A stretch of DNA of 64,000 nt from Candidatus Doudnabacteria bacterium (GTDB lineage Bacteria; Patescibacteriota; Doudnabacteria; UBA920): NCBI GenBank assembly GCA_963837465.1, contig CAWINB010000004.1, positions 202,853 through 266,852 on the forward strand, given 5' to 3'. The notes under the pieces are model-generated. The model did not search any database and was not told the DNA's origin. It saw nothing but the letters and a program-made list of their open reading frames with translations. Below are positions 1,423-54,852 of the stretch, one piece after another. The translations under genes were made by a program, and so were the position numbers. Position 1 is the stretch's first letter, and each line of letters opens with the position of its first letter.

Positions 1423-1778
1423 GTTAAATTAGGTGATAGGGATTAGGGATTAGAGCCTGAAAAATAAAAAAGCAAACTCTGGTGAATTTGCGTAAGTTTA
1501 ATTAAGCCATTGGGTTGACTTGTCGGTTGGGGATGAAATGGTCGCCGGATAATATCGTTTGTTTGCCTTTCAGACTTTAATATTGCAGATAATGTAGCAT
1601 TTGAACCTTGGTTTGTCAAATACACAACGGATGATTTTATGATTTATTCGTTCTGTCCTTCGGCCGCGCTTAGGAGATTCGGCCCGCTATTATTGGCCGA
1701 AGGTTACCAGCGAACTTATCCAAAAATGGTGAATCTATTTTACGAAGTCCAAACCTATTTTATCAAAAACAGCTAACC

Positions 1779-2204
1779 TTGACTACTCCTAAACCACCTT
1801 CTGTCTTAGCTATAACCCAAGACCTGCGGCTAAAGACCGAGGATATTGACCGGAGGCAAGAACGGCTTTTCCAGGGCTATCTTTCCGAAGACATTAACCC
1901 AGAAAAATACCGGCAGGAGAAGAACAAGCTAACTTTGGAAAAGAAGACCCTTACCGAGCAAATTACAAAGTTGGAACATAAACAAAAAATTTGGGTTGAA
2001 CCCCTTAAAAATTTCATCAAAGACGCTGAAAATTTGGGCGAAATAACGCTTTCGCCCGAACTGCACCCCAAAAAATCGGCTGCACAACAAATCTTTGGCT
2101 CGAACCTGTTTTTAAAAAACCGTCAGTTGCAGTTTAGCCCACAAACACAATGGGCTGCGCTAAGCGCAGCCCTGCAAAAAGTCGGGGAAAGTTCCTTTGT
2201 GTAA
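1779..2204 (+). pseudogene. C-terminal coiled-coil remnant of a large serine recombinase (LSR)
   Basis: The 141 aa ORF aligns with the C-terminal ~130 aa of the LSR at 44658..45725 (QDLR..TDEIDR..IW..PLK.WI.DAE.LGEITLSP.L.PKKS.AQ.IFGS.L.LKN). No catalytic or zinc-ribbon part lies upstream. It ends 5 nt from the 3' end of the convergent tRNA-Leu. Confidence 0.7.
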
Positions 2205-2209
2205 TATTC

Positions 2210-2296
2210 TGGTGCCCGGGGAGGGAGTTGAACCCTCAATCCCTTACGGGCGACTGATCTTAAGTCAGTAGCGTATGCCAGTTCCGCCACCCGGGC
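2210..2296 (-). tRNA. tRNA-Leu(TAA), long variable arm, CCA encoded
   Basis: The reverse complement folds as a cloverleaf. Acceptor GCCCGGG/CCCGGGC, anticodon stem ACTGA/TCAGT, loop CTTAAGA, variable hairpin CCC-GTAA-GGG, T-arm GAGGG-TTCAACT-CCCTC. Confidence 0.85.
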
Positions 2297-26148: not shown

Positions 26149-26224
26149 GGGTCGGTAGCTCAGCTGGTAGAGCAGCGGCCTTTTAAGCCGTTTGTCGAGG
26201 GTTCGACCCCCTCCCGACCCACCA
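26149..26224 (+). tRNA. tRNA-Lys(TTT), copy 2 (different acceptor and T stems from copy 1)
   Basis: Cloverleaf with acceptor GGGTCGG/CCGACCC and T-arm GAGGG-TTCGACC-CCCTC. Positions 8-47 are identical to copy 1. Confidence 0.9.
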
Positions 26225-27665
26225 TATTGAACTTCTTGGAATCTGCAACGAGTTTAAACTCATTTTTCCAATTGGGGATTAGTGTTTCTCCATTCCAAGA
26301 AAAGTTTTCCAACATAGACTTCACCAAACGCCTTTTCCCTTCGGGAGAGGCTTTTTGGTAAGAGAAATAAGGATTTCTTAAAAGTTTTCCAAGTAGCACC
26401 ATTTGGTCTAAAATCTTTTCATCCGCAGTATCCAAAGCAACCCGCCTTTGCCTAAGCACTAATGATTGGTTAACAAACCTGGCCTTTAGCGAATTGTAAG
26501 TGTCTTCCTCAATTTTACCCTCAATTAGCCTCATTGCCAAGGCCTCAGTTTGTTGCCTTATTCTGACCTCGTCCATCTGAATTTTCTTTAGTTCGTCATC
26601 CTTGCAAAAGTTCATATCAGTCCGAAAACTCTTGACGGCTTCAATATATTTCTGCCCCTCTTGCTCGCTGAACTGGATTTCTTTTAACCGTTTTAAAAAC
26701 TGTTTTTCAATGACGGCTTCCCCAATATTTTTAAAGCCGCAGTTTTTATTTCGGCAATTGTAATATTTATATTTTTTCTTTGCCGAAACACAGCGTAGTT
26801 TACCTTTGCACAAAGGGCAGAATACTAAATTTTGAAAAACATAAATAAAAGTTTTGCTATGCTTGTAGCCTCTGCCACTTAAAACTACCTGCACTTGATC
26901 GTAAAGGTCTTTGGTGACAATGGGGGTATGCTTGCCCTCAATCGGTTCCTTGCGATAGCGAAAGAAGCCGTAGTAAAACGGATTGCGTAATATGTGAGCC
27001 AGTTTATTTTTACTTAACTTACAGCCTTTTTTAGTAAGTAAGCCCATTTCAGTTAAAATATCGGTTAACTGCACTAGCGAATAATTGCCTGTAGCGTACA
27101 TTTCAAAAGCTCTTTTTATAAACGGTGCTTTCACTGGATCTGGTTCTTTAAAAGCTTTCTTGCCCATGTTGACATAGCCTATCGGAGCAGGTAATGGAGT
27201 CATCCCTAAATTTAATAATCCGCTTATGCCTTTGTTGACTTCCTGCTTTAGGTTGGCAACGTAAGACTTGGCAAAACCAAATTGGATAAATAATATGCCC
27301 TTGTTGGGAGTTGAACTGGAAATTCCGTCAGCTACAAAATGCAGATCAAAACCAGCGTTCATCATATCTTCTAAAATTATCATATCCTGAAAATTCCTGG
27401 AGGCTCGGTCAACTTTATTAAAAATAATGCCTTTAACTTTATAATGTTTAGCTAATGCTATCATTTCGTGAAATTCATGGCGATCAATTTTTGAAGCACT
27501 TTCAATCTCCCTGAAAACTTTGAAAATTGGCAGTGGCGGATGATGATGTTCCGCATAAAATTGGTTTTGCCGTGTTTGTTCGTCTAAAGACGCTCCATCC
27601 GATTGCATTTGGCTGGAGACCCTGACATAGGAAATATAGGAATTTTGGTAGTCAATTGCTTTCAT
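26160..27665 (-). CDS. Large serine recombinase (resolvase catalytic domain, recombinase domain, zinc ribbon and coiled coil)
   Basis: Catalytic domain YISYVRVSSQMQ...KVDRASRN with the Ser nucleophile. The recombinase domain and zinc ribbon CPLCKGKLRCV...YYNCRNKNCGF follow, then a coiled coil. The last ~16 codons are encoded antisense to tRNA-Lys copy 2. Confidence 0.85.
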   Translation of the reverse strand: MKAIDYQNSYISYVRVSSQMQSDGASLDEQTRQNQFYAEHHHPPLPIFKVFREIESASKIDRHEFHEMIALAKHYKVKGIIFNKVDRASRNFQDMIILEDMMNAGFDLHFVADGISSSTPNKGILFIQFGFAKSYVANLKQEVNKGISGLLNLGMTPLPAPIGYVNMGKKAFKEPDPVKAPFIKRAFEMYATGNYSLVQLTDILTEMGLLTKKGCKLSKNKLAHILRNPFYYGFFRYRKEPIEGKHTPIVTKDLYDQVQVVLSGRGYKHSKTFIYVFQNLVFCPLCKGKLRCVSAKKKYKYYNCRNKNCGFKNIGEAVIEKQFLKRLKEIQFSEQEGQKYIEAVKSFRTDMNFCKDDELKKIQMDEVRIRQQTEALAMRLIEGKIEEDTYNSLKARFVNQSLVLRQRRVALDTADEKILDQMVLLGKLLRNPYFSYQKASPEGKRRLVKSMLENFSWNGETLIPNWKNEFKLVADSKKFNMVGREGVEPSTNGLKGRCSTS

Positions 27666-38002: not shown

Positions 38003-38578
38003 ATGGATTATAAGATATTCGTTAGTATAATTTCAGTCATCCTTGTTTTTGTAGGATACGGCCCGTACATTCGGGATATTTTTAAGCGAAAGACAACCCC
38101 ACATACTTTTACTTTTTTGGTTTGGGGTATTTCAAGTTCAATTACTTGGGCTTTACAAGTGATGGGGGGGGCTGGAGTGGGTGCGTGGATAACATTTGCG
38201 GTTTCTGCCGTGTGTATATTTATTTTTTTCCTGTGTCTAAAATATGGTGAAAAAAGTATCGCTATTTCAGACGTTGTATTTTTAATACTTGCCCTGTTTT
38301 CGCTTTTTCTTTGGCTTGTGGTAAAACAGCCAGTCTTGTCAGTAATACTTGTGGTTTTAACGGATATATTAGGTTTTGGGCCAACTATAAGAAAGTCTTG
38401 GAATAAACCTCATTCCGAAACATTATTTACTTGGTGGGTCGCGGCATTTAGGCACGCATTAGGTATTATTGCCTTACAAAAGTTTAATATTTTTACACTT
38501 CTTTATCCAGTAGCCTGGACGATAGCCAACTTAATTTTTTGTCTAATTTTGCTTATAAGACGTAAGCAAATTAAGTAA
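38003..38578 (+). CDS. Polytopic membrane protein (about 6 TM)
   Basis: 191 aa ORF made up almost entirely of hydrophobic helices. Confidence 0.45.
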   Translation: MDYKIFVSIISVILVFVGYGPYIRDIFKRKTTPHTFTFLVWGISSSITWALQVMGGAGVGAWITFAVSAVCIFIFFLCLKYGEKSIAISDVVFLILALFSLFLWLVVKQPVLSVILVVLTDILGFGPTIRKSWNKPHSETLFTWWVAAFRHALGIIALQKFNIFTLLYPVAWTIANLIFCLILLIRRKQIK

Positions 38579-38590
38579 ATTTGTCCTTTT

Positions 38591-38980
38591 ATGGAACGTG
38601 CAGAAACATTAGGCCTTTTGGCCTTTAAAAACTGGGTAGGAGATCGGGGCGAAATCCTTAATACTTCTAGGGATGGAGTTGGGTATGATTGCAAAGTAAA
38701 ATGGAAGGACACGGGCTTGGCCGAAACATACGAAATTAAAGGAACAGCAAAAGTATTGAAAATTCCCGATATGAGCGTCGTTGAATTTGATGAAAGCCAT
38801 AGATTAAAGGCCGATTTTCTTTTTGTGGCCGGAAACGTATTTGAAACTGGTAAAGAAGTGCTGTTTAAAATTCCAAGAGAAGCCTTAACTGAAGAAAATC
38901 TAAAACTGAAACAAACCTATCATATAAGGCTTTTCCAAAACCAAAAGAAAATGGGGAAATACCGCCTTACCAGTAATTAA
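38591..38980 (+). CDS. Stand-alone DUF3883 (NOV C-terminal, restriction-endonuclease-like) domain protein
   Basis: G.RGE...GVGYDCKV...ETYEIKGT matches the remembered DUF3883 signature G..GE...GyDi...yIEVKtT. Confidence 0.5.
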   Translation: MERAETLGLLAFKNWVGDRGEILNTSRDGVGYDCKVKWKDTGLAETYEIKGTAKVLKIPDMSVVEFDESHRLKADFLFVAGNVFETGKEVLFKIPREALTEENLKLKQTYHIRLFQNQKKMGKYRLTSN

Positions 38981-39260
38981 ATTGCTCTGATAAGGCAAAC
39001 CCGTCTGAAATAAAAAATTGACCTCAGATGAGGTCTTTGTGTAGAATGTATATAATATCGGCTTGGCTATTTAGATCATTCCTGACGTTAGCAGTGAACT
39101 CTGGGATAACCCTAATAAGGCCTGATAGATGTCCTTAACCAAACGAGCAAATAGTTTTCCAATTGGTTCTATATGCTCCACCAAAAAAAGCGCCGAGACT
39201 TTTTGGGCGCTTGTTAGTAAAAATAAAAAGTGGTATAATTAAGATAATTAAACTTATCTT

Positions 39261-39875
39261 ATGAGAAAAACATTATTACTTGCAGTTCCTTTAATTGCCT
39301 TGATGGCAGCTGGTTGTTCGTCAAATTCCAACAACAGCCCCCAGAGCAGCGCTTCGCAGTCACCAATTGCAAATTCTCCTAGCGTCCAACAACCATCGAC
39401 ATTGACGGCACCGTCAGCTGCCGAATCAGATTTTAAACAAGCCAGCGACCTAGCAGCACAGCAATGCAGTAATTTACAGCTGGTCGAATATTTCAAAAAT
39501 TTTAAACCAGCAGATAAGGGTAATACTGCCAGTGGTTATAAATTTATTTGCGACGATGGAAAATATGTCTCGGTTGATATAATGAGCACCGGAAACATGC
39601 AAACGAGAAAATTAACTAATCTTTACTATAAACCCATTACATTGGCAGATTGGAAAGTTAATTTAGATTCGGCAAAAAACATAGCTTTACAGAATGGTGG
39701 GAACGATTTTATTAGCAAAAATAGTGGAGCATTTTTGAATGGTGAAATTTTAACCAGCAGAACCGATGAAGGCTTTAAGTGGATTATAGATTTTGAGTCG
39801 CAAAATTATAATTCGGAATTGCAGATATTTATCGATCCGACGACTGGCGCAATACTAGGTCAGAAAACTTACTAA
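39261..39875 (+). CDS. Lipoprotein
   Basis: Signal peptide with a lipobox (LIALMAAGC|SSNSNNS). 204 aa. Confidence 0.6.
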   Translation: MRKTLLLAVPLIALMAAGCSSNSNNSPQSSASQSPIANSPSVQQPSTLTAPSAAESDFKQASDLAAQQCSNLQLVEYFKNFKPADKGNTASGYKFICDDGKYVSVDIMSTGNMQTRKLTNLYYKPITLADWKVNLDSAKNIALQNGGNDFISKNSGAFLNGEILTSRTDEGFKWIIDFESQNYNSELQIFIDPTTGAILGQKTY

Positions 39876-39983
39876 ATCGTATACCTTTAAAATTTCGGTC
39901 TGGGCAGGTTCTTTAAAAAATCGCACCAAACTTAAGCAAAGTTAAAATAATTCTCGCTTACAAATTGGTGGTTTGGCACATGT

Positions 39984-40012
39984 GCTGAGTTCGATCCCCG
40001 GCCGTCCCACCA
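39984..40012 (+). repeat. Partial tRNA-Lys 3' end (att-site remnant or direct repeat of tRNA-Lys copy 1)
   Basis: GCTGAGTTCGATCCCCGGCCGTCCCACCA. The 3' 24 nt match copy 1 with one mismatch. The 5' GCTGAGTTCGA part matches the attP-like core at 26073. Confidence 0.7.
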
Positions 40013-40044
40013 TAGTGTCCTTTTTCGCTTCTGCGACTAACCTG

Positions 40045-40152
40045 AATTCGTTTTTCCAGTTGACCTGTATAACCTTTTCGCTATTCCAGGTTAGGTTTTC
40101 AACCATAGATTTCACCAAACGCCTTTTCCCTTCGGGAGAGGCGTTTTGGTAT
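40045..40152 (+). repeat. Diverged ~105-bp direct repeat of 26255..26360 (LSR C-terminal coding remnant)
   Basis: CATAGATTTCACCAAACGCCTTTTCCCTTCGGGAGAGGCGTTTTGG aligns with CATAGACTTCACCAAACGCCTTTTCCCTTCGGGAGAGGCTTTTTGG. In both places the sequence lies directly 3' of a tRNA-Lys sequence. Confidence 0.7.
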
Positions 40153-40178
40153 GCCGGGTGCGGATTCTTCAGCCGTAT

Positions 40179-44312: not shown

Positions 44313-44641
44313 TGCCTCGGTAGCTCATTGGTAGAGCGTTGCCCTATAAAAACAATCTTTGGGGCCATTCGCCGTAAGGCGGATTGAGAAAAACTGGGTG
44401 AACTCGGGGAAAACTTCATCTCATAAAAAAGATGAAATAATCCCGAGCCAAGTTCCGAAGGGCTTCGCCGGCTGGCGGAAGGTTTCGGAAAAGGTGTAGA
44501 GACTAATAGGTGAGTCCCAACAATAATCCTATACAAGCGCCCAGCCCCGGCCCTTTAATATAAAGAGCCGGGTGATGATATAGTCCAAATTAGCCTCGGA
44601 AGAGGCAAGCGTAGTCAGTTCGATTCTGACCCGAGGCACCA
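44313..44641 (+). tRNA. tRNA-Phe(GAA) interrupted by a 254-nt group I intron after U33
   Basis: The 5' exon 44313..44344 (GCCTCGGTAGCTCATTGGTAGAGCGTTGCCCT) and the 3' exon 44599..44641 (GAAGAGGCAAGCGTAGTCAGTTCGATTCTGACCCGAGGCACCA) join to a canonical cloverleaf with loop CTGAAGA. The intron carries the group I R element (GTAGAGACTAATAGG) and S element (GATATAGTCC). The IGS GGGGC can pair with the exon end GCCCU, with a U.G pair at the splice site. Omega-G is at 44598. Confidence 0.75.
44345..44598 (+). ncRNA. Group I self-splicing intron (no ORF)
   Basis: Conserved P7-flanking R and S elements and P1 pairing. 254 nt, too short for a homing endonuclease. Confidence 0.7.
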
Positions 44642-44702
44642 GATTTTACTAAGTTTTTTAGCGCGGACAGAGTTCCCCTAAAAAAAGCAACAATCCAAAC
44701 AA

Positions 44703-44776
44703 GCGGCCATGGTTCAATGGTAGAACTCCTCCTTGCCAAGGAGGGGATAGGGGTTCGATTCCCCTTGGCCGCTCCA
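44703..44776 (+). tRNA. tRNA-Gly(GCC), CCA encoded
   Basis: Cloverleaf with acceptor GCGGCCA/TGGCCGC, anticodon stem CTCCT/AGGAG, loop TGCCAAG, T-arm AGGGG-TTCGATT-CCCCT. Confidence 0.85.
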
Positions 44777-44930
44777 GTAGCAAACTTTCAGACATTTCAG
44801 ATTTTTTTGCACGGGCTTCGCAGAGCGAAGCCCATTGTGTCGGGGGGACGGAAACGATTTTTTGATTTTTTAAAACAAGGTGCGAGCCGAAGATTTTTTG
44901 TGCAGACGATTTTTTGGGGGGTAAGTCGGG
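44772..44930 (+). repeat. Perfect ~160-bp inverted repeat, copy A (partner 50672..50828)
   Basis: Copy A, from CTCCAGTAGCAAACTTTCAGACATTTCAG to GACGATTTTTTGGGG, is the exact reverse complement of copy B. It starts at the CTCCA 3' end of tRNA-Gly and encodes the penultimate ~50 aa of the LSR. Confidence 0.85.
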
Positions 44931-46329
44931 CGAAAGCGTTATTTCGCCGAGTTTTTCTGCGTCTTGTATCCACTCTTTGAGAGGTGCGAGCCAGATTGTC
45001 CGTTGTTGTTCAAGACGGGCTATTTGCTCCTCCAGCGACTTCTTATCGGACACAAGAACGTTCTTTTGTGTCCGATAGGTTTCCTGCTCAATGTCTTGGT
45101 CTAAATAGGCGTTAAGAAGTCGCTGGAGCTTGCGGTCAATCTCATCTGTCCTTGAACGCAAGTCTTGGACAACCACGGCCACGGAGCGGGCGGAGTCCTT
45201 GTCGTCCTTGTCCGCCATAGCGTTTAGCTGTTCCGCCCACTCTGGTGGCATTACAAAGGTTTTAAGGATAGTTGTAAGCTGGTTGTCCAGTTCCGTGTCC
45301 CTGACGGACAACTGCGAGCAATGGGTGTTTTTCTTAGTGCAACGATAGTATAGGTAATTATGGACATTGCCGTTTTTTTGGTGCTTGGTCTTGGTTTCGG
45401 CGGTTATGCTGCGGCCGCACTCGCCGCACTTGAGCAAACCACAAAACGGCTGGGGCTGGTTCTTGGGATTGTCGCGCTGGTGGCCGCGTTTTTCTAAAAC
45501 CTCCTGTACTTTATCCCAAAGCTGCTTGGTAATGATTGGCTCGTGTCGCCCTTGGTGCAACTCACCTGCGTATTGGAAAAATCCGTAATAAAAAGGGTCG
45601 TTTAAAATATATGTTATCCTGTCCCGTTTTAGGATTTTTCCGCTCTTGGCTACTATGCCCTTATCTTTTAAAAACAAAGAAATGGCCTCAAGGGTATTAC
45701 TACCTTGAGCGTATAGTTCAAACATCTGTTTAATGATTTTGGACTTCCTTTTGTCTATGACAATAGTTTTAGTCCGGCTGTCGTTAAGATAGCCGATAGG
45801 CGCACGGCTGGGATACTCGCCGCGCCGGACTTTTCTCTAAGCCCCCGTTTAGTGTTGTTGCTTAGGTCTAAAATAAACTGGTTAGCCATTCCAAACTCAA
45901 CGCTCATAAGCAGAACGTTATCAGTCGAGCGATAGCTCCGCTCATTGGTTTGGATATGCTGGATTATGCCGCGCTGTAAAAACCAGCTAATCTGCCCGCC
46001 GTCCACGGGGTTGCGGGCGAGCCTGTCCAGTTTCCAGCAGACAAGGCCTTGAGCTTCGCCTTTTTCAATCCGGCTCATCATCTCGGAAAACACCGGACGG
46101 CCTAAAGATTTAGCCGACTGTTTTTCCACAAACTCGCAAGCAATAGATAAGTCCTGCTCTTTTGCCAAAGCCCGCAACTCCGTGAGCTGGGCTTCTATGG
46201 ATAAAACCTGTTTATCCTCAACATCGGTGGACTTGCGGGCGTAGAGAAAATAGTTATCGTTTACCAAAATTGATTTTTTTGCTATCATATAATTGTAGTA
46301 AATTGTTATATATTGATACTAGCAAATAG

Positions 46330-46545
46330 TTGAAGAATATGCAAACAACCCCGAACATTGGGAATAATATAAAAAAATACAGGGGCAAGCTCGGCTTAAC
46401 ACAGGAAGATTTGGTAAAAAAATCAGGCGTAAAATACACCACCCTTTCTAAGATTGAAAGCGGAGCGTCAAAAAAACCGACAGTTCACATAATCGCTAAA
46501 ATCGCTAAAGCCCTCGGCGTTTCTATTGAAAATTTAATAAAATAA
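46330..46545 (+). CDS. XRE-family HTH regulator (possible controller of the R-M operon)
   Basis: 71 aa ORF with the HTH KKYRGKLGLTQEDLVKKSGVKYTTLSKIESG. It lies 5 nt upstream of mod. Confidence 0.7.
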   Translation: MKNMQTTPNIGNNIKKYRGKLGLTQEDLVKKSGVKYTTLSKIESGASKKPTVHIIAKIAKALGVSIENLIK

Positions 46546-46549
46546 ACTT

Positions 46550-48277
46550 ATGAAAAATCCAGAACGCGCGCCGGAAGATAACAAAAAGGCGCAGTTAGAA
46601 AATGAAGTGGCGAGGCTTAACAAAAAAATTGCCAAATACGAGGCCATAGAGTTAAAGCAAAATCGTTTTGGCTTGGTTTGGATTGATGTGCCGGAAGCCT
46701 TTGAAGATGATGTTGAAAACAAACTGCCGATTTTAGAAGAAGTGCCAAAGTTGGCAATAAACAGCAAAGACGGCAAGCCAACACATTTGCTTATTGAGGG
46801 CGACAACTATCACGCTTTAACCTGCTTAAATTATACTCACAAAGACAAAGTTGATGTTATTTACATTGACCCTCCGTATAATACTGGCTCCGCTGATTTT
46901 AAATATAAAGATAAGAGAATTTTAGACAAGTTTCCCGATGGGACTTTAGTGCCAGTTGACCACCCTTTACGCCATAGCTATTGGCTTTCTTTTATGAAAA
47001 AGCGTTTGGAATTGGCTAAAGATATTTTGAAAAAAACCGGAGTTATTTTTATTAGCATAGATGACAATGAACTTGCACAACTAAAATTATTATGTGATGA
47101 AATTTTTGGAACAGAAAACTTCATTGAAACAATTATATGGAAAAAAAGAGCTACTCCTCCAAATGACCGTGAAATTGGAAGAAATCACGAATATATTTTG
47201 TGTTATGGCAAAACCCAAAATGTAAATTTAAATTTGCTTCCAAGAACCGAAGAAGGGATAGCGAGATATAAAAATCCAGACAATGACCCGAATGGAGCGT
47301 GGGCGGCTTCTGATTTAAGCGCAAATGGAAAAGGTGGAAGATTAGTCCAATCTTTAGTATTTCCGATAAAAAACCCATTAAATAAAAAAGAATACTTGCC
47401 GCCTAAAGATAAGTGTTGGCTTTATAACAAAGAAAAAATTGATAAGTTCATATCCGAGGGAAGAATTATTTTTCGTAATAGTGGAGCGCCATTTTTAAAA
47501 AGATATTTGAGTGAAGTTAGACAAGGCCAAACCGCACCGACTATTTGGGTTGACGCAGGCTTTTCTCAAGATTCCGCTCAAGAGATAAAAGATTTGTTTA
47601 ACGGGGAAAATATTTTTGAAAGCCCAAAGCCTTTAAAGCTAATAAGCAGACTTTGTTTTTTGGGTTGCAAAAAAAAGGACGCTGTAATTTTGGATTTTTT
47701 CGCTGGCTCTGGTACAACAGGCCAAGCAATTATGGATTTAAATGAAGAAGACAAGGGAAGCAGGCGGTTTATTCTGATTACCAATAATGACGAAATAACA
47801 AACGGGGGAAAGCATAAAATAATGACAGATATTTGTTACCCAAGAATAAAAAAGGTTATTAAAGGTTATAATTCAAAAAAGGGCTTGGGTAATTCCATAA
47901 AGTATTTCAAAACGGCTTTCGTTGGGAAAAATAACATATTGAAAGCTGATGACGCAGATAAAATAGAATTAGCTCACAATGCAGGCGGTATGTTGGCTAT
48001 TGCAGAAAATACTTTTGATCAAGTTGAACAGAATAATTATTGGCAAATTTTTGAAAGTAACAAACAATATACAGCCGTATATTTTAGAGAAGAATTTGGC
48101 AAGTTTGATGAATTTATAGAAAAGGTTAAGAAACTAAAAAAACCGGCTGTTGTTTACATTTTTAGCTGGGAAAAAGAATTTGAATTTAACGAATTTGAAG
48201 AAGACAAAAACATAAAAATTAAAACTATTCCCCAGCCGATTTTAGAAATTTACAAACAGATTTATAACCTTGTTTAA
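46550..48277 (+). CDS. mod: Type III restriction-modification methyltransferase (Mod), beta-class N6-adenine/N4-cytosine MTase
   Basis: Motif IV DVIYIDPPYNTG comes before motif I ILDFFAGSGTTGQA. The 575 aa size and the position directly upstream of res support the call. Confidence 0.85.
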   Translation: MKNPERAPEDNKKAQLENEVARLNKKIAKYEAIELKQNRFGLVWIDVPEAFEDDVENKLPILEEVPKLAINSKDGKPTHLLIEGDNYHALTCLNYTHKDKVDVIYIDPPYNTGSADFKYKDKRILDKFPDGTLVPVDHPLRHSYWLSFMKKRLELAKDILKKTGVIFISIDDNELAQLKLLCDEIFGTENFIETIIWKKRATPPNDREIGRNHEYILCYGKTQNVNLNLLPRTEEGIARYKNPDNDPNGAWAASDLSANGKGGRLVQSLVFPIKNPLNKKEYLPPKDKCWLYNKEKIDKFISEGRIIFRNSGAPFLKRYLSEVRQGQTAPTIWVDAGFSQDSAQEIKDLFNGENIFESPKPLKLISRLCFLGCKKKDAVILDFFAGSGTTGQAIMDLNEEDKGSRRFILITNNDEITNGGKHKIMTDICYPRIKKVIKGYNSKKGLGNSIKYFKTAFVGKNNILKADDADKIELAHNAGGMLAIAENTFDQVEQNNYWQIFESNKQYTAVYFREEFGKFDEFIEKVKKLKKPAVVYIFSWEKEFEFNEFEEDKNIKIKTIPQPILEIYKQIYNLV

Positions 48278-48279
48278 TT

Positions 48280-50664
48280 ATGCCAGCATTTAACCTTTTA
48301 CCATTCCAAAAGACAACGATTGATGATTTAAACGAAGCCTTTTTAAGACTTTGGAAAAAACAAGGCAGGCAGTTGCCTTTGGTTTTTAAATCGCCAACTG
48401 GAAGCGGTAAGACTTTGACCGCCGCCCATTTTATAAAAGGACTTAATCATTTGCCGCAATGGAAAATTGATAAAGCATTTATTTGGATTACTTTTAGCGA
48501 TGACTTGGCAATGCAGAGCAAGGATAAGTTCAAAGACTATTTTGAAAACAATCTAGAAAATGCTCTGTTAACTGTAAACGATATAAACAGAGGCAAACTA
48601 TACGAAAATGATATTTTATTTTTGAACTGGCAAAAGGTTGTGCAGGATAATGCCGCAACCCGAAAACTTAAATTACGCAAACCCAAAGACGAAAGATTTA
48701 AAAAAGAAACGGGCAGTTATTTTGAAGATGTAATGGCAGAAACTAAAAAGGCTGCTCGAGAAATTATTTTGTTTGTTGATGAAGCCCACACCCACAAATC
48801 AACAGAGCTGGCGCAGGAGATTATTGACCTTATTAACCCTAAAATAATTGTGCATATAACCGCAACACCAGATGAAAAAGACGAACTGACGGCAAGGCGG
48901 TTAAAAAGTTTTGTAGAAGTAGCCCGAGAACAGGTTGTTGATGAGGGTTTAATAAAAGAAAAAATTTTAGTGCAGACTGAGGAAGACTTAAAAAAATACA
49001 AGGGCAAAGATTTAGATGAAGTCCTTTTGACACTGGGAATGGAAAGGCGGGAAGAGCTGGCAAATGAACTAAAAGCATTGGGTAAGGATATAAACCCGCT
49101 AATGCTTATTCAGTTGCCCAATGATGATAAAGAGCTTATAGCCAAAGGTGATAAGACTAAAGAAGAAGTTGTGAGCCAATTTTTAGCCTCTAAGGGCATA
49201 AAAAGCCAGCACATAGCCAAATGGTTTGACGGCAAAAAAGACAACTTGGACTTTATAGCCGACAATGACAGCAAGGTTGATTTTATGCTTTTCAAACAGG
49301 CCGCAGGCACGGGCTGGGACTGTCCCCGTGCGAGTGTTTTGGTTATGTTTAGGGAAATAAAAAAGGAAACTTTTTACACTCAAACAGTTGGCCGCATTTT
49401 AAGAATGGCCGAACCACAGGCAAAAGAAGATTATAAGAACAGTCCGAATTTAAGAACCGGCTATTTATATACCAACTATAAGCGTAGCCAAGTTGAACTG
49501 CCCGATTTAAAGAAAAATGAAATTCCAAGCCAGCACGCTTACAGGAAACAAGGTATTAAAAATATTAAATTGCAATCAGCCTATATTTCACGCATTGACT
49601 ATGGCGACATTCCAGCCTCGTCCAAATTCCAAGAGAGCTTTGTGAACTCAATGAACTCCTATTTTGGAATTACCAAAACAGACTTGCAAGCAATGGGGAA
49701 AGCCGAAGCGAAGCTAAAAAAGGCGGGCGTTGATTTAAGCCGCAAGCTAACCAACAGCATTATTGCCAATGCCAAGTTTGAAGATTTTGACCAAATGGCT
49801 TATGACTTTAAAAAGAGAGGCATTGATGTTGAGCTGGAAATATCAACCAATGATGTAGAAAAAACTTTTAATTATTTTTGCCTAATGCTCTTAAAAGAAC
49901 AAACAGATGAGCAGGCAAAATATACCAATGTCGCCCGTGCTTGGGGCGTGTTTAAATCAGCTATCCGTATTTGGTTTCAGGCTGTGTTAAACACAGACAG
50001 TAATTATTATTACAGGGTTTTTGTTAAGGATATACAAAAGGGGGCGGCCAGCAAATTCAGACCGGCAATAACCAAAGCCTTAATTGATTTTAAGCCTATT
50101 GCTCAAAGCATACTAAAAGACCGGAAGAAAAAACAGGAAGAAGCAGAAGCTCCGATTTTTGAAATTTTAGAGCAATACGGTTTTACATCTGATTACGAAG
50201 AACTGCCCCAAAAACTTTGCGCTTTGGATAAATGTTTTGTGCTTAAAGATTATAAAGGCAAAGAGAATGAATTGAATTTTATTAAATATCTTGAGGGCAA
50301 AGGCAAACAGATTGACTGGTGGTTTAAAAACGGCAATCAAGGCAAAGAATATTTTGCGATTAAGTATTTTAACAGCGTGGACGGCAAAGAAGCCCTGTTT
50401 TACCCCGACTTCATAATACGCTTTAAAAGTGGCGGGATAGGGATTTTTGACCCTAAAAAAGACCAGACGGCAACAGACCCCGAAACGGCCGACAAAGCCA
50501 AAGCGTTGGCGTTGAAACTAAATAAGTTAGGCAAGGTCTATGTTGGCGGTATAGCTGTTTTTGAAAATGGCGTTTGGAATTATAATAGCTCTGAAAAATA
50601 CAAATACCAAAAAGGTAAGATGAACCAAGATAAAAATTGGCAACCTCTTGAAAATTTATTTTAG
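48280..50664 (+). CDS. res: Type III restriction enzyme Res subunit (SF2 helicase-like with a C-terminal nuclease region)
   Basis: Walker A FKSPTGSGKT and a DEAH box LFVDEAHT. 794 aa, with its start 3 nt after the mod stop. Confidence 0.8.
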   Translation: MPAFNLLPFQKTTIDDLNEAFLRLWKKQGRQLPLVFKSPTGSGKTLTAAHFIKGLNHLPQWKIDKAFIWITFSDDLAMQSKDKFKDYFENNLENALLTVNDINRGKLYENDILFLNWQKVVQDNAATRKLKLRKPKDERFKKETGSYFEDVMAETKKAAREIILFVDEAHTHKSTELAQEIIDLINPKIIVHITATPDEKDELTARRLKSFVEVAREQVVDEGLIKEKILVQTEEDLKKYKGKDLDEVLLTLGMERREELANELKALGKDINPLMLIQLPNDDKELIAKGDKTKEEVVSQFLASKGIKSQHIAKWFDGKKDNLDFIADNDSKVDFMLFKQAAGTGWDCPRASVLVMFREIKKETFYTQTVGRILRMAEPQAKEDYKNSPNLRTGYLYTNYKRSQVELPDLKKNEIPSQHAYRKQGIKNIKLQSAYISRIDYGDIPASSKFQESFVNSMNSYFGITKTDLQAMGKAEAKLKKAGVDLSRKLTNSIIANAKFEDFDQMAYDFKKRGIDVELEISTNDVEKTFNYFCLMLLKEQTDEQAKYTNVARAWGVFKSAIRIWFQAVLNTDSNYYYRVFVKDIQKGAASKFRPAITKALIDFKPIAQSILKDRKKKQEEAEAPIFEILEQYGFTSDYEELPQKLCALDKCFVLKDYKGKENELNFIKYLEGKGKQIDWWFKNGNQGKEYFAIKYFNSVDGKEALFYPDFIIRFKSGGIGIFDPKKDQTATDPETADKAKALALKLNKLGKVYVGGIAVFENGVWNYNSSEKYKYQKGKMNQDKNWQPLENLF

Positions 50665-50671
50665 TTTATTG

Positions 50672-50828
50672 ACGTTACCCCAAAAAATCGTCTGCACAAA
50701 AAATCTTCGGCTCGCACCTTGTTTTAAAAAATCAAAAAATCGTTTCCGTCCCCCCGACACAATGGGCTTCGCTCTGCGAAGCCCGTGCAAAAAAATCTGA
50801 AATGTCTGAAAGTTTGCTACTGGAGTCC
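50672..50828 (-). repeat. Inverted repeat copy B
   Basis: Exact reverse complement of 44772..44930. Confidence 0.85.
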
Positions 50829-50873
50829 CTGTATCAGGACGCACGCACCCATTTTATCAAAAATTCCTGACTT
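50680..50873 (+). pseudogene. Orphan LSR C-terminal fragment (...PKKSSAQKIFGSHLVLKNQKIVSVPPTQWASLCEARAKKSEMSESLLLESLYQDARTHFIKNS*)
   Basis: The in-frame translation of repeat copy B on the plus strand is identical to the tail of the LSR at 44658 up to the CTGGAG junction. After the junction it continues with a different 15-aa tail. Confidence 0.6.
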
Positions 50874-51118
50874 CCGATAGGCCAAAACAGGGTCAAAAGG
50901 GGGGTCGTTTACCCCTTCATTCAGGTAGTCACTAGCCATTTTCAGAGTGACTACCCTCCGGTCTTAAAATAGCCCTGCTGCTATTGGCTTTCCTGCTCCG
51001 GCACTACCCAAAATCCAATGCCGACTTCACTCCGCTACAGTGTGCTCACTTCCGCTCCGTGATTGCCCCTCGGCCTTCTCTCCCGTCCGTCTTTTGACTT
51101 TACTCGTTGGTGGGGGTG
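50824..51118 (+). repeat. Near-perfect ~295-bp inverted repeat, copy C (partner 53928..54220)
   Basis: The reverse complement of 50824..51118 matches 53928..54220 except for a ~10-nt indel near one end. The sequence runs from CCCCCACCAACGAGTAAAG to GGTGCGTGCGTCCTGATACAGGGA. Confidence 0.85.
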
Positions 51119-51196
51119 TGTGAATTGAAACAAAAAAATTGCGCTCAAGGCCGCAAGGCCGAGCGCGAAAAAAATAAAAACTTGAATTTCTAACAA

Positions 51197-51988
51197 TCAA
51201 TTTAAATCATTTGATTTCTTCCATCGTTTATCAAAGACAGCTTTTAAAGCTGGCAAAAAGATTGATACCGTTTGTGTCGGCAGGAATATAACGAATGACT
51301 CTTTATTCGCAAAATCTTTAATGCCATAGCCAACTATCACCAAAGCGTTATCTGCTATTATGTATCTGTCGTGTAGCTCGTAAAACTTATCGTATTTTTT
51401 TAATTTTATGTTTTTAAATTCGCGTTTAAATCTTTTTAAGTTATTCTGAAAATTTGTTAAATTTCTTTGTTCCTCATTTCCTAATTGAGAAGATAAAAAT
51501 TTTATTTTGGTTTTTTTACCAAACTTTTCTAGTGTAAAAAATGTTCCATTACCATAGTATGGGTCAACAATACGCAAATCTCCTTTTAACATTTTAATAA
51601 TATTTGGAAGTTCTCTGTTTGAGTCTGTCCAAGCATTAACGCCGCTTAAAAATACTATTTTGTTTGTTGGTATATCAGGATTTTCTACTTTATTTTTATC
51701 TATCCAAGCAGGAAACCAATATTTCTTCTTATTGCGACCCCTGCCAACAATTTTAACCTTGACCACATCATTTTCTAAGAGAGGCTCCATCAATGATGTT
51801 AAGTTATTTGCTTTAATTTTTTTACCAGCACCCTCATTAAGTAAATGGGTAAGTTGCGATGAAGATATCACAGCGTCAAATTCCTCATCTTTCAATAATT
51901 TACATACCCGAAAAGCAAAACTCCCTTTGCGAGTGAGTTGTTTCGAATTTTCTATTTTATTAAAAACAGTCTTTTTTGCAATAACCAT
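51197..51988 (-). CDS. Hypothetical protein, 263 aa (cargo of the inverted-repeat cassette)
   Basis: AT-rich, basic ORF with no confident motif. Confidence 0.4.
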   Translation of the reverse strand: MVIAKKTVFNKIENSKQLTRKGSFAFRVCKLLKDEEFDAVISSSQLTHLLNEGAGKKIKANNLTSLMEPLLENDVVKVKIVGRGRNKKKYWFPAWIDKNKVENPDIPTNKIVFLSGVNAWTDSNRELPNIIKMLKGDLRIVDPYYGNGTFFTLEKFGKKTKIKFLSSQLGNEEQRNLTNFQNNLKRFKREFKNIKLKKYDKFYELHDRYIIADNALVIVGYGIKDFANKESFVIFLPTQTVSIFLPALKAVFDKRWKKSNDLN

Positions 51989-52035
51989 ATTATATTTTTA
52001 TGTAAAGCAGAACTTTTAATATCTCACTTTTTCAG

Positions 52036-52257
52036 TTAGACAAAATATTTGTACTTTCCGTCTTCTTTTTTTCTCATCACCCGCTCTCTCCTTAGTAAAT
52101 AAAGTAAATTAACCCTGATGTCTTCAGGTTTTTCGTTGTGGCCAAATCTGTCTTTCAGTTCTTTTCTGATTTCCTCTGCTATCTTTGGCTGCTTACTAAT
52201 TACTTTCATAATTTTTTCTGCAACACTTGGTTTTGATTTATTTGTTTTCATATTCAT
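52036..52257 (-). CDS. Small basic hypothetical protein (C-terminal ...GKYKYFV)
   Basis: 73 aa ORF. Its C-terminal motif is shared with the next ORF. Confidence 0.35.
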   Translation of the reverse strand: MNMKTNKSKPSVAEKIMKVISKQPKIAEEIRKELKDRFGHNEKPEDIRVNLLYLLRRERVMRKKEDGKYKYFV

Positions 52258-52260
52258 AAT

Positions 52261-52617
52261 TTATCTTTTAAAATATTTATAAGTGCCTTTTTGAGGCTTG
52301 TTTCTCCCAAGAACTTTTTTTCGAACCAATAATATTAAAGAGGGCATTAGCGAAGTGGTTGGCTTTACAACCCCCTCATCGCGCAGTTTTTTTTGTATTT
52401 CAGATATATCCTTAGGGTCTTTAAAAAACCCGTCTTTAACCAGTGTATATATTTCCCCAGTCAAACCAGAGAACTGGCTATGCTCTAAACCCTGTTTTCC
52501 AGTCCGTTTAGCCAAAATTGCCGACTTTTGTTGTTTAATGCCTACTGATTGTTTCAGTTCAACCAAAAGCGATTCGATTTCTTCAATGATATCTTTGCTA
52601 TTTCTTACTTTTTGCAT
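52261..52617 (-). CDS. Small basic hypothetical protein (C-terminal ...GTYKYFKR)
   Basis: 118 aa ORF, 3 nt from the previous ORF. It appears paralogous to that ORF at its C-terminus. Confidence 0.35.
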   Translation of the reverse strand: MQKVRNSKDIIEEIESLLVELKQSVGIKQQKSAILAKRTGKQGLEHSQFSGLTGEIYTLVKDGFFKDPKDISEIQKKLRDEGVVKPTTSLMPSLILLVRKKVLGRNKPQKGTYKYFKR

Positions 52618-52966
52618 ATTAGGTTTTATAATTTAATTAATAATTAAGTATAACGAATAGTTAAATAATATTAGTTGACCACCGTAAACATCTGAATTTA
52701 AAGCTGATTATGTCTTTTCCTATTGAACGTATAATATTACAAAATGGAATAGTTGTCAAGAATTAAATAGTAATAAACTAAAAAAAGCCTTATTTAAAGG
52801 CTTTAATGCTATTTTAGTTTATATCTTTAACTGAATAGGGATATAAAAACTATTTTAAAGTATATTCAGCTTGAGAAAGGAACGTTAATCAAACCGGACG
52901 ATTTTTAAGGGAGCTTAGAAGCTCTCTTTGCCCGCGCAACGGGAGGGTTGGGGCAAGGACAAAACC

Positions 52967-53833
52967 TTAATGCAAAATCGTTTTCGGCATATCGTCCTTC
53001 GGCGACTTCCATATCGGCTCAAAAATCGCCTCCGGCTTGGAGATTGAATAGTTTTTATCAGACGTAAACAGGAACATATTACTGCCCTGCTGGTTTGAGT
53101 TGGCCACCTTGGAGGCGATTCGCAAGTTTTCGCTCCGCGTTTCGTTAGGGGTTATAGTAATGACCCGAAAACGGGTGAAGCCTAAAGAATCTTTGAGCCG
53201 TTCTTCCCGCCCCCACCGCCAGTAAAGTTTTAGTTTGTTTACAAATCTTTCCTCGGTCATCGTCCCTCTATCGGCTTCAAGGAAGACGGGATATTTATAT
53301 TCCTTGGTATCCAAGACAAAGAAAGCGTCCGGCACGAGTTCGGGATTTTGGCCGTGCCGCCCCCGCAATGCGGACTTTAAGTCATAGCCCTGTAACCACC
53401 GGTGGAGCTTGAGGTCGTCTCGTTTCCGTATCGCCAATGTAAGACAAGTTCTAAACTGCGAAATCATCAGGGCGTGGGCAATCAAGGGCAGGGAGCGTTC
53501 AATCTCACGCATACGGCGCAAAATCCCTTGGAACTGTTCCGAGTCTCCGTAGACAACTTCCGCTCCTTTCTTGCCGAGGGAATAGATGATGTGGGAGGAA
53601 GGAAGCTTTGAATGGCTCTGGTTCTTAGGCCTGTCCAAGAATCCCAAGTCAAACATAGCGGCAAGACGGCGAAGGAAGTTACGTCTGCCTCCGGGGTGCA
53701 GGGCAAGGATTTGCTCGGTGTTGAGGAAACGATATTCTCCCAACTCTTGGAGCAGTTCCATATCCCGTGCCTGTAGCTGGAGGGGGTCTTTTACCTCTCT
53801 CCTGACTAACCTTTTTCTTAAAGCGGTAGCCAT
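52967..53833 (-). CDS. Replication-relaxation (Replic_Relax)-like family protein, GC-rich
   Basis: An N-terminal wHTH-like region is followed by a conserved ...FFVLD...YPVFLEADRGTM motif, as remembered for PF13814. GC content is far above that of neighbouring genes. Confidence 0.5.
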   Translation of the reverse strand: MATALRKRLVRREVKDPLQLQARDMELLQELGEYRFLNTEQILALHPGGRRNFLRRLAAMFDLGFLDRPKNQSHSKLPSSHIIYSLGKKGAEVVYGDSEQFQGILRRMREIERSLPLIAHALMISQFRTCLTLAIRKRDDLKLHRWLQGYDLKSALRGRHGQNPELVPDAFFVLDTKEYKYPVFLEADRGTMTEERFVNKLKLYWRWGREERLKDSLGFTRFRVITITPNETRSENLRIASKVANSNQQGSNMFLFTSDKNYSISKPEAIFEPIWKSPKDDMPKTILH

Positions 53834-53927
53834 AAAAGAATCTGTTATAATTCCATTATAGCAGGTTCCAAGACCCCCTCTGTCCGAGGCCTTCTCGACC
53901 CGTCCGCTACCTTATTTATCTGTTTCA

Positions 53928-54220
53928 CACCCCCACCAACGAGTAAAGTCAAAAGACGGACGGGAGAGAAGGCCGAGGGGCAATCACGGAGCGGAAGTGA
54001 GCACACTGTAGCGGAGTGAAGTCGGCATTGGATTTTGGGTAGTGCCGGAGCAGGAAAGCCAATAGCAGCAGGGCTATTTTAAGACCGGAGGGTAGTCACT
54101 CTGAAAATGGCTAGTGACTACCTGAATGAAGGGGTAAACGACCCCCCTTTTGACCCTGTTTTGGCCTATCGGAAGTCAGGAATTTTTGATAAAATGGGTG
54201 CGTGCGTCCTGATACAGGGA
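53928..54220 (-). repeat. Inverted repeat copy D
   Basis: Reverse complement of 50824..51118. It overlaps the 3' end of the truncated LSR gene. Confidence 0.85.
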
Positions 54221-54852
54221 CTCCAATCGGAACTTTCAGCCCTTTGACGCACCCTGTCAAAGGGTTTTCCGTAAGTAAATTGGGGCTTTTGGTCAATTAG
54301 TTTAGAGTTCTGAAGTAAGAAACCCAACAGCTCCCGTTTTTCATCGGGTTTCGCATTTTCATACAGTATTGCCGCATTTTTAGCGAGTTCTAAAGTTTTT
54401 ACGCCAAATTGGTAATAATCAATGTCCGCATAAGTATATTTGCTAATCAGCGTATCCAAGTCTTTAATTTTTTTAGAATACTCGGCAAACCTTTGGTTAT
54501 AAAATTCATCGCTAATCTTCCTGTCCAGCCTGTCCTCATACATAACGCTAAGCCGATTTTGTAGCTTGGCCTTTTCCGCTTCCAGCTTTTCCCGTGTTAC
54601 ATCCTCTGTATTGCGCTTAAAATACAAAGACTGCTTAAGACCCTCTGCCACATAATCAACAGCGTCCTGGGGCATTTTGTGCATTATGTGTAGTGAATTT
54701 AGTATATCCTCATCAAAGACAGTTTCATTTACGGCCTTTTGCATACAGTTAGTGCCAAACTTGGTGCAATGGTAATAAATAAATTCCTTGCCGGATTTTT
54801 TAACAACCTTTTCTGCCGTTACTGTGCGGCCACATTCGCCGCAAGCCAGCAA
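54166..54852 (-). pseudogene. 5'-truncated large serine recombinase (zinc ribbon and coiled coil only)
   Basis: The ORF begins directly in the zinc ribbon (CGECGR...YYHCTKFGTNC) and is followed by a coiled coil. No resolvase or recombinase domain lies upstream. Confidence 0.75.

Follow-up and report, generated by a model that had tools for sequence, protein, structure and literature searches.

A tRNA-associated family of large serine recombinases, mostly of Patescibacteria, with the crossover site inside the recombinase gene

The integrase of myxophage Mx8 takes a tRNA gene as its target. Its attachment site attP resides within the integrase coding sequence (IntP/IntX); the recombinant gene formed on integration has a different 3' end, and the enzyme survives the change (PMC6070905). 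In the 'suicidal' integrases of the SSV type, which belong to archaeal viruses and plasmids, the attachment site is likewise translated within the integrase, tRNA genes are the targets and the specificity is readily switched; the alteration of the gene upon integration has been proposed to control directionality without a recombination directionality factor (RDF) (PMC7253208). A further variation is found in the immunity system of mycobacteriophage BPs, where attP lies inside an open reading frame (ORF) whose C-termini differ between the free and the integrated form, the tail of the free form being a functional degradation tag that is removed on integration (PMC4557955). Here we report on a large serine recombinase (LSR) gene, LSR1, that belongs to an integrated element, E1, and runs antisense into a tRNA-Gly gene. 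Both were encountered in a 64,000-nucleotide (nt) stretch of a Candidatus Doudnabacteria contig, hereafter the window.

The well-known serine integrases Bxb1, phiC31, A118/LI and SPbeta SprA have much in common with the LSR1 family, including the same domains and short att sites in which attP is dyad-symmetric and the crossover takes up 2 bp; their DBD2 motif lies 4-5 bp nearer to the centre in attB than in attP, a shift that may have a counterpart in the LSR1 family. One survey, however, states that tRNA genes are not among the known targets of serine integrases (PMC7192596), and tRNA goes unmentioned in a large survey of LSR att sites (PMC10083194). Small elements with cargo or defence genes do reside beside tRNA genes and in tandem arrays in the tycheposons of Prochlorococcus, a minority of which carry an LSR. 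For serine integrases, the literature that we searched describes neither an attP embedded in the ORF nor a systematic use of tRNA genes as targets; the precedents are confined to tyrosine recombinases.

The observation at the heart of this report is real and holds across the family: the crossover lies inside the LSR ORF, and the C-terminal tail of the recombinase is replaced on integration. The reading of it that we favour, and consider probable, is that E1-type elements constitute a very large family, mostly from the candidate phyla radiation (CPR)/Patescibacteria, whose members are integrated by their LSR precisely at the 3' ends of tRNA genes and carry attP within the 3' end of the LSR gene, the tail swap being mainly a by-product. 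One attP half-site, the P' arm, would be formed by the last ~10 shared codons (...LSCIL-V/E), the crossover dinucleotide would coincide with positions 2-3 of the last shared Val/Glu codon and with tRNA positions 72-73, and the second half-site, the Q arm, would consist of the following 13-18 codons up to the stop (xLYxxARTYFxxNx, then stop). Integration would join P' to the tRNA, extend the LSR ORF into antisense tRNA sequence and leave the Q arm at the other end of the element. The tRNA would stay intact while gaining an element-encoded CCA and a trailer with a conserved hairpin, and target recognition via the universal T-loop box would account for the spread over at least 14 isoacceptors.

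Recombinase frames and their junctions with tRNA genes

The LSR1 frame passes the 3' end of tRNA-Gly and reads the tRNA in antisense (...SESLLLE/RPRGIEPLSPPWQGGVLPLNHGRLF...; the coordinates of all features are collected in Table 1), so that its final 37 codons are the reverse complement of tRNA-Gly and of the DNA upstream of it. This had been claimed in a prediction made from the letters of the window alone (the original prediction) and is confirmed by ORF reading at 44703-44776. The read-through thus stands, but the gene is not intact: LSR1 is divided into two ORFs by a 1-nt deletion near 45829 (AAG[G]TCC; ...NTKRGLREK/VRRGEYPSRAPIGY...; REK/VRRGEYP) and does not encode one intact polypeptide, unlike the LSR at tRNA-Lys and the majority of homologues. 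With the frame restored, the protein shares 84% identity with P0001, an intact database protein of 545 aa. Its Pfam hits are serine recombinase domains only, with no tyrosine recombinase fold, and by this domain content the LSR1 family enzyme is a bona fide LSR and not a member of the Mx8 or SSV integrase families, to which its behaviour bears a resemblance.

The last codons of LSR1 are present a second time in the window as an orphan copy. The two copies form a 148-nt inverted repeat, I2 (44772-44919 / 50678-50825), with 100% complementarity; the shared segment and the different tail noted in the original prediction hold, and only the orientation of the orphan, which is inverted and not direct, needed correction. 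Past the shared Glu codon the orphan continues as ...SESLLLE/SLYQDARTHFIKNS to a stop codon, and the identity between attL and the orphan ceases at the crossover dinucleotide, 44772-44773. The alternative tail SLYQDARTHFIKNS is encoded by the first 42 nt of the adjoining Q arm (copy 2) with a stop at 50868-50870, and the orphan and this Q arm together make up an intact attP-type site. The Q arm is a slightly degenerate form of the family half-site (GCACGCAC in place of GCTCGAAC), and its mirror in the P' arm is a AGTTGTAT-type motif at -14..-7.

Homologues are numerous. The protein search gave 6379 significant hits among the scored candidates, the named examples being from Patescibacteria, and at least 575 genome loci are found, mostly in metagenome-assembled genomes (MAGs) of Patescibacteria; two further LSR1 paralogues reside on the source contig itself (868,218 nt). 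We compared 80 genome loci from GTDB species representatives, 67 of which have a downstream stop. A convergent tRNA called by ARAGORN has its 3' end at aligned residue ~505/506 in 57 of these 67, representing 14 isoacceptors, and tRNA-like tails are seen in most of the remaining ten. Among the 57 tRNA-linked loci there are 30 with the LSR stop within the tRNA, 25 with the stop past the tRNA 5' end and two with the stop before the tRNA, both with degenerate C-termini, and all tRNA-linked frames read the T-arm in one frame (G[IFLV]EP). The genes are mostly full length and intact. A C-terminal alignment of 120 homologues shows conservation up to ...[ILV]L[VE], residue 506 of LSR1; past this point most have antisense T-arm peptides (G[IFLV]EP...), and about eight have L[YF]xxxRT[HY]FIKNS followed by a stop. 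P0001 has a tRNA-Gly tail and P0019 a THFIKNS tail; the two proteins are near-identical as far as ...DLCFILE, and it is exactly at this point that they part. The comparison of homologues proposed in the original prediction has therefore been run, and tails do alternate between tRNA-derived and native forms (P0001/P0019, and 31 of 32 orphans). Homologues that stop before the junction would have spoken against it, and 55 of the 57 read into the tRNA, the other two being the degenerate ones.

These comparisons also dispose of a trivial explanation, namely that the read-through is an accident of ORF finding and the orphan an assembly error or a random remnant. Antisense tRNA sequence is often free of stops, the LSR1 copy is frameshifted, assembly collapse can generate perfect repeats, and the related contigs L001-L003 lack a terminal overlap that would prove circularity. 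Yet dozens of independent MAGs and metagenome contigs, produced in different studies with different assemblers, show this junction, frame and orphan again, the arms are 90-100% identical with a lineage-specific insertion preserved, and none of the homologues whose C-terminus is intact has its stop ahead of the junction. The comparative data have already refuted this explanation, to which we give next to no credence. Read-through as an ORF artefact was rejected on the grounds that only degenerate homologues stop early and that the exception at tRNA-Leu is due to a 1-nt insertion; the idea that the orphan is left over from a second element, or is due to misassembly, was rejected in view of at least 42 genome loci with 90-100% identity.

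In order to locate the crossover, inverted repeats were searched without recourse to the tail motif, giving 41 listed pairs, of which 32 lineages were aligned in detail. In these 32 the orphan and LSR copies are identical through TGG[AT]G, after which one enters the Q arm and the other the tRNA; in 39 of the listed pairs the orphan is followed by a Q-type arm and forms with it a complete, inverted attP. Because the first two bases past TGG[AT]G differ between the arms, the 2-bp overlap cannot lie further in. Attachment-site junctions of the attR type, where non-LSR DNA meets a Q arm in metagenome contigs, retain [AT]G, often lack TGG and have a variable preceding base, which places the overlap at [AT]G itself. 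In the tRNA this dinucleotide is represented by C72-N73, and in the LSR it occupies positions 2-3 of the last shared codon, which reads GTG (Val) with discriminator A and GAG (Glu) with discriminator U. The exact crossover position is thus inferred from junctions, and judging from the same junctions the sequence shared by attP and attB would be TGG[AT]G only, with the arms parting immediately beyond. The attP core follows the tRNA terminus, being CTCCA in the window, TACCA in L001 and CACCA in L003 and at tRNA-Leu. The original prediction had guessed at a crossover within CTCCA, which is right as far as it goes, the dinucleotide being CT at tRNA positions 72-73 and not part of CCA; its broader claim, that the crossover lies inside the recombinase ORF and that integration rewrites the C-terminus, is supported by both the homologue junctions and the orphan pairs. 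Given an overlap at C72-N73, the element would supply CCA and the 3' trailer and leave the tRNA body untouched, and the CCA at 44774-44776 would be of element origin.

The arms offer clues as to what the recombinase may read. The dyad symmetry of attP consists of ATA.AAC at positions 7-13 of both arms, a motif that encodes the conserved ...SCIL... in the LSR. In addition, TCGAAC, the reverse complement of the T-loop box GTTCGA, is situated at positions 15-20 from the crossover in the tRNA arm, as the arm profile shows for tRNA-Gly in its antisense reading, and at positions 19-24 in the Q arm, a 4-bp offset. The DBD2 motif is shifted by 4-5 bp between attB and attP in the SPbeta, LI and phiC31 integrases (bioRxiv 10.1101/2025.01.03.631226). 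Since the offset agrees with this known shift, DBD2 may be the domain that reads the T-loop box; the target is probably recognised through this box, which would explain easy retargeting among tRNAs.

Within the P' arm, and inside the LSR ORF, resides a GC-rich hairpin located 37 nt past the 3' end of tRNA-Gly (about 40-62 nt in the family), with further copies at 50764-50784 in the orphan and at 2142-2162 at the tRNA-Leu locus. Compensatory double changes were found for 8 of its 9 pairs over 25 lineages, and ATTGnTTTT follows the hairpin on the tRNA strand in about half of the lineages. As integration would displace the native terminator of the tRNA, the hairpin may serve as a terminator of tRNA read-through; the terminator scan made no call at 44813-44833.

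The alternative tail and the inverted spare attP

Scanning metagenome contigs for the Q arm with a 20-nt word retrieved at least 120 DNA stretches, from which 67 unique family-like copies were analysed. The conserved block extends from the core exactly to the stop codon, about 50 nt. The unbiased orphan set has the consensus ..TcTaTACaAc...GCTCGAACcTATTTTa, and codon positions 1, 2 and 3 of its tail carry 0.93, 1.16 and 0.86 bits; the third position is as conserved as the others in the 67 copies too. The tail itself, xLYxxARTYFxxNx with a stop, is present in ~8 of the 120 database homologues and in 31 of the 32 unbiased orphan copies, and is the true end of the gene in its attP form. In the AlphaFold2 (AF2) model of a homologue with native tail (mean predicted local distance difference test, pLDDT, 87.7) the last confident helix spans residues 482-496. 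Residues 497-518, which comprise the eight residues before the crossover and the 14-residue tail, have low pLDDT, the alignment being shallow for the tail, and the last ~22 residues of the LSR are accordingly predicted to be disordered. The AF2 model of homologue P0025 contains a coiled-coil insertion with helices 347-395 and 400-427 behind the zinc-ribbon strands at pLDDT ~90. The tails of integrated copies vary from ~4 to ~125 residues and have no common property. Conservation of the tail by protein function alone was rejected, as third codon positions are equally conserved and the tail is predicted to be disordered. The tail is conserved largely at the DNA level, because it is an attP half-site. 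A search of the Q arm for known structured RNAs at the Rfam gathering thresholds was negative. Judged by the family consensus, an outward promoter with the extended -10 element TGATAAAAT would be plausible (the conserved ATTTTA gives TAAAAT as its reverse complement), which is speculation; the promoter scan of the window called none there.

The inverted orphan is a trait of the family rather than of the window. At least 42 of the 80 genome loci (L004-L083; many others fall short of flank) have an inverted copy of the LSR 3' end, 84-180 nt in length and 90-100% identical, upstream of the LSR, and the same is true of many metagenome contigs; none of the well-sampled elements is without it. The gap between the inverted arms is often ~1450-1600 nt, the length of the LSR gene alone, and the smallest elements have nothing but the LSR between the repeats. 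A second inverted pair, formed by the Q arms (100-307 nt), surrounds cargo in the window and in L204, L074, L156 and L183. The general map accordingly reads, from the host inwards, crossover, Q1, cargo B, inverted Q2, crossover, inverted P'2, cargo A, LSR, P'1, crossover and tRNA. The full architecture is reproduced in L204 (repeats 4708-4993 / 8169-8454 / 8452-8622 / 11297-11467), in which a tRNA-Arg, LSR and orphan P' are accompanied by Q inverted repeats around a defence cargo B that comprises a methylase, an MvaI/BcnI-type nuclease and GmrSD. From such an arrangement, excision by attL x attR recombination would yield a circle with two inverted attP sites.

The orientation is strictly observed. 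In ~60 pairs with one arm at a tRNA and the other at a Q arm it is always the tRNA-side arm that bears the full-length LSR, and the inversion isomer, with the full LSR on the Q-linked arm and the orphan linked to the tRNA, was found in 0 of these ~60 pairs among assembled contigs; apparent isomer hits came down to ORFs of equal length, an effect of a 1-nt frame offset. The orphan of L062 (888-1054 / 4332-4498) passes not into a Q arm but into antisense tRNA sequence, over 16 nt, and may have been copied from attL or have been left by an inversion. About ten lineages (L019, L022, L035, L039, L050, L051, L056, L058, L066 and L069) have a 10-11-nt insertion in the orphan (TTTGAATTTT-like) after ...AAAATCTTCGGC, within the KIFGSN codons. 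As the insertion is retained while the rest remains near-identical, the orphan appears to be old and in concerted evolution with the LSR end. Differences between the orphan and LSR copies amount to 28 synonymous and 26 nonsynonymous changes, without coding bias.

What, then, might the tail swap be for? The original prediction saw in it a switch of directionality or regulation. Spelled out, activity would depend on the native 14-aa tail, or a tRNA-derived tail would inactivate or destabilise the enzyme; integration by way of the attP at the LSR would thereby lock the element in place, while the inverted orphan would preserve the true 3' end so that rare recombination between P' copies could re-arm excision. 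The ORF remains open over the crossover in every lineage, and the orphan, with its 84-180 nt of homology, is always inverted, so that recombination would invert and not delete the LSR. The two copies evolve in concert despite the old insertion of 10-11 nt, and the absence of the isomer among ~60 pairs is expected if that state is transient. Precedents exist in the SSV-type integrases (PMC7253208), the 3' end of the Mx8 int gene (PMC6070905) and the BPs tag (PMC4557955). The idea of a switch with a spare end would account for both the orphan and the orientation bias but is without direct support, and several observations speak against it. The tail and the eight preceding residues are predicted to be disordered, constraint at the level of DNA suffices for the conservation seen with third codon positions equally kept, the orphan and LSR copies differ without coding bias, the inverted state has never been seen, and integrated LSRs are mostly intact, which fits continued function with foreign tails. 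We hold a functional switch to be unlikely, and the regulatory role proposed for the swap is unproven. A stricter version, in which these enzymes would be 'suicide-and-resurrection' serine integrases, integration stripping the native tail and locking the element without an RDF until a flip between the inverted repeats restores the tail and re-arms excision, appears unlikely as well. On our best reading the tail swap remains in the main a by-product, a consequence of attP having been packed into the gene.

A number of points weigh against the main reading. Its by-product part leaves the inverted second attP and the absolute orientation bias unexplained, and in its pure form does not require the conserved tail length and the fixed stop: the frame ends 13-18 codons past the crossover in 31 of 32 lineages, by which distance DNA conservation has faded, and the stop codon is TGA, TAA or TAG at an unchanging place while the motif xLYxxARTYFxxNx is kept, all of which would suit a switch. 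The mapping of the crossover rests on junction comparisons; no empty attB was recovered, nor an attP form of the same element that could be shown to be circular. Junctions between an LSR and a Q arm arise from tandem insertion as well as in free circles, as is evident where E1 adjoins the LSR remnant at 54166-54852 and in L155; the contigs L001-L003, in which neither a terminal direct overlap nor a tRNA was found, may represent episomal or tandem junctions. The T-box model covers only two of the four half-sites, since a TCGAAC box was looked for in the P' arm at the mirrored position and not found, and the arm comparison revealed no conservation in the host-side B' arm. Finally, owing to its frameshift the LSR1 copy in the window may be inactive.

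The nested repeats suggest a third possibility, that the LSR doubles as a DNA invertase and flips segment A or B, resulting in phase variation of restriction or defence genes or in plasmid copy amplification in the manner of the yeast 2-micron FLP system. Two near-perfect inverted-repeat pairs with a common crossover core are nested in the window, L204, L074, L156 and L183, and the cargo consists of restriction-modification or defence genes. The position of the recombinase 3' end inside one repeat resembles Cin and cixL of phage P1, which we take as a lead only. However, a single orientation of segment A relative to the tRNA was found; characterised LSRs are not known to recombine attP x attP or attL x attP; and flipping segment B alters no promoter-gene relation that we identified, the Q-arm promoter not being called in the window. 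We regard this function as highly improbable.

Layout of E1 and of the other loci in the window

E1 covers 44774-54222 (~9.4 kb) at tRNA-Gly. The Q arms form the inverted repeat I1 (50814-51120 / 53926-54232; 307 nt, 99%), which together with the orphan copy of I2 gives a composite inverted repeat of 443 nt. The cargo is type III-like restriction-modification with a Replic_Relax segment; the gene order of segment A recurs beside a homologous LSR in L001, and the order LSR, Q arm, Replic_Relax also occurs in L002. At its right end (Q1-CT-CCA) E1 meets the 3' end of a second, older LSR remnant, the frame of which likewise runs over the junction into Q1. This points to a tandem insertion, with E1 placed between tRNA-Gly and the older element.

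Table 1 Features of the window and their positions (numbered from its first letter)
Feature	Position	Strand	Remarks
Decayed element at tRNA-Leu(TAA)	1722..2296	+	tRNA-Leu 2210-2296 on minus strand
LSR at tRNA-Lys(TTT), intact, 501 aa	26160-27665 (region 26149..27665)	-	tRNA-Lys 26149-26224; 26% identity to LSR1
LSR1, large serine recombinase gene in two ORFs	44658..46288	-	Pfam, homologue alignment
LSR1 C-terminal ORF, 355 aa	44658-45725	-	Recombinase PF07508 and Zn_ribbon_recom PF13408
LSR1 N-terminal ORF, 177 aa	45755-46288	-	Resolvase PF00239, E = 9.5e-21
tRNA-Gly(GCC)	44703..44776	+	ARAGORN, Rfam; attB-type half-site of attL
Inferred crossover dinucleotide C72-U73 of attL	44772..44773	+	AG on LSR strand, codon positions 2-3 of Glu506
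P' arm, last ~49 LSR1 codons	44772..44919	-	Element-side half of attL; left arm of 148-nt inverted repeat
GC-rich 9-bp hairpin (GGGCTTCGC AGA GCGAAGCCC)	44813..44833	+	Inside LSR ORF, codons for ...QWAAL.AAR...
Segment A cargo	46330..50664	+	HTH_3 regulator 46330-46545; N6_N4 DNA methylase 46550-48277; ResIII helicase/restriction subunit 48280-50664 (Pfam)
Orphan inverted copy of LSR1 3' end, 49 codons	50678..50825	+	Crossover dinucleotide AG at 50824-50825
Q arm (copy 2)	50826..51120	+	Left arm of inverted repeat I1
Segment B, between inverted Q arms	51121..53925	-	263-aa ORF 51197-51988; 118-aa ORF 52261-52617; Replic_Relax 52967-53833 (Pfam)
Q arm (copy 1), right end of E1	53926..54222	-	Ends at crossover CT 54221-54222
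Second, older LSR remnant, Zn ribbon to C-terminus	54166..54852	-	31% identity to LSR1

Beyond the older LSR lies the remnant of this second element (54952-60802), with a reverse transcriptase (RVT_1, 54952-56013), a MOSC protein and fragments of IS256/Mutator and IS4/5 transposases; the neighbour of RVT_1 has a weak DUF4145-like match (E = 0.0043, under the Pfam cut-off), possibly a defence system. Another, degenerate Q-CTCCA-P' junction is situated at 60754-60802. On the other side of E1, in the interval between tRNA-Val and tRNA-Gly, Rfam identifies a group I intron at 44336-44608 (71.9 bits), flanked by an apparent split tRNA (3' exon ...GTTCGATTCTGACCCGAGGCACCA, end ~44643) that ARAGORN did not call. 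Intron-containing tRNA genes have recently been reported in Patescibacteria (PMC13011429), and this intron fits the report. In L205/L206 (the P0078 locus) a related element at tRNA-Gly harbours a reverse transcriptase and a bAvd-like protein, reminiscent of a diversity-generating retroelement (DGR), in addition to coupling proteins of the TrwB/TraG type; this suggests that some family members are conjugative or mobilisable.

The original prediction had LSR frames converging into or near tRNA 3' ends at three loci, and this is what is seen at tRNA-Leu, tRNA-Lys and tRNA-Gly. At tRNA-Leu an attR-type junction (TGGTG, 1727-1731) is followed by a 45-nt Q-arm remnant (...TYFIKNS, stop) fused to the last 132 LSR codons (1779-2204) and then by attL; given that it holds both a Q-arm remnant and an LSR end, this element has been reduced to its two ends by internal deletion. 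The LSR remnant, which converges on tRNA-Leu, is 55% identical to residues 369-500 of LSR1. Its apparent stop 5 nt short of tRNA-Leu results from a 1-nt insertion (GGGG for GGG), and with one G removed the frame has the family-typical form ...QKVGKVPLCNILV/PGEGVEPSIPYGRLILSQ with its stop and runs into the tRNA.

The LSR at tRNA-Lys (PF00239, E = 1.5e-18; PF07508 and PF13408 also present) is, by its sequence, of a clade other than that of LSR1, and stops 65 nt inside the tRNA. A C-terminal remnant of one of its relatives is found at 39981-40172 together with a displaced 32-nt tRNA-Lys 3' fragment that matches the acceptor stem of tRNA-Lys copy 1 and not of copy 2. With a longer tRNA-like stretch shared, the crossover of this clade would lie further inside the tRNA. 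The homologues of this LSR, too, have antisense-tRNA peptides as their ends, with all three frames represented (GxEP, NRTP, DSNx). The island at tRNA-Lys copy 2 (26149-40172) is low in GC (30-40% vs about 45-50%), contains a truncated serine recombinase gene of 255 aa (27662-28429) that overlaps the one at 26160-27665, and has a LOOT RNA match at 32707-32833 (Rfam, 51.8 bits, above the gathering score). Elsewhere in the window a GC-rich palindrome, CCGCCGGAGGCGGATCCGCCTCCGGCGGA, occurs at 5997-6056 and 62126-62179, 56 kb apart; each copy is preceded by CTAAAATTA, and the copies match each other in both the direct and the inverted sense.

Significance and comparison with known systems

Serine integrases are major tools of genome engineering, and the control of their direction and the choice of their targets are active questions. 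The family described here has thousands of CPR members, and for attB it apparently makes use of the T-loop box and the acceptor end, both of them invariant in tRNAs. The integrase gene accommodates all of attP in its 3' end, so a minimal element amounts to about one gene and its repeats. Free and integrated forms differ solely in a short tail, which provides a built-in experiment. Should the swap turn out to be neutral, the attP/attB geometry, the logic of tRNA targeting and the spare-attP architecture would still inform our view of mobile elements and defence islands in the CPR, and the geometry eases the prediction of att sites for thousands of LSRs. If the 'suicide-and-resurrection' scheme were true, it would represent a new, self-contained mechanism of directionality for serine integrases and, combined with T-loop-box recognition and crossover at 72/73, a naturally retargetable integrase family.

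How do these elements relate to what has been described before? Mx8 is a single phage system with a tyrosine recombinase, as opposed to a family established on 14 tRNA types, and no inverted spare attP has been described for it. The SSV-type integrases are also tyrosine recombinases, so far known from archaea only, and their gene is broken into two halves that are inactive; in the LSR1 family the exchange is limited to a probably disordered tail of 13-18 residues and leaves the catalytic and DNA-binding domains whole. In BPs the altered gene is the repressor, the integrase being a tyrosine recombinase, and no degron-like motif is evident in xLYxxARTYFxxNx. Bxb1, phiC31, A118/LI and SPbeta SprA have their att sites outside the integrase ORF and target protein-coding genes or intergenic regions. 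Among the tycheposons 910 of 937 employ tyrosine recombinases, and neither an ORF-embedded attP, nor integration at 72/73, nor an inverted spare attP has been reported for them.

Inversion systems complete the picture. In Hin, Gin, Cin and Pin the serine recombinase gene lies beside or overlaps one of two inverted sites, and inversion swaps C-terminal coding ends. These are small serine recombinases that work with an enhancer and Fis, swap tail fibres or flagellins and coexist in both orientations. In LSR1 elements, too, two inverted crossover sites flank a segment (I1, I2); here the recombinase is an LSR, a single orientation is seen and the second is absent among assembled contigs. The tRNA 72/73 geometry, the T-box offset and the inverted spare attP are new variants of known themes.

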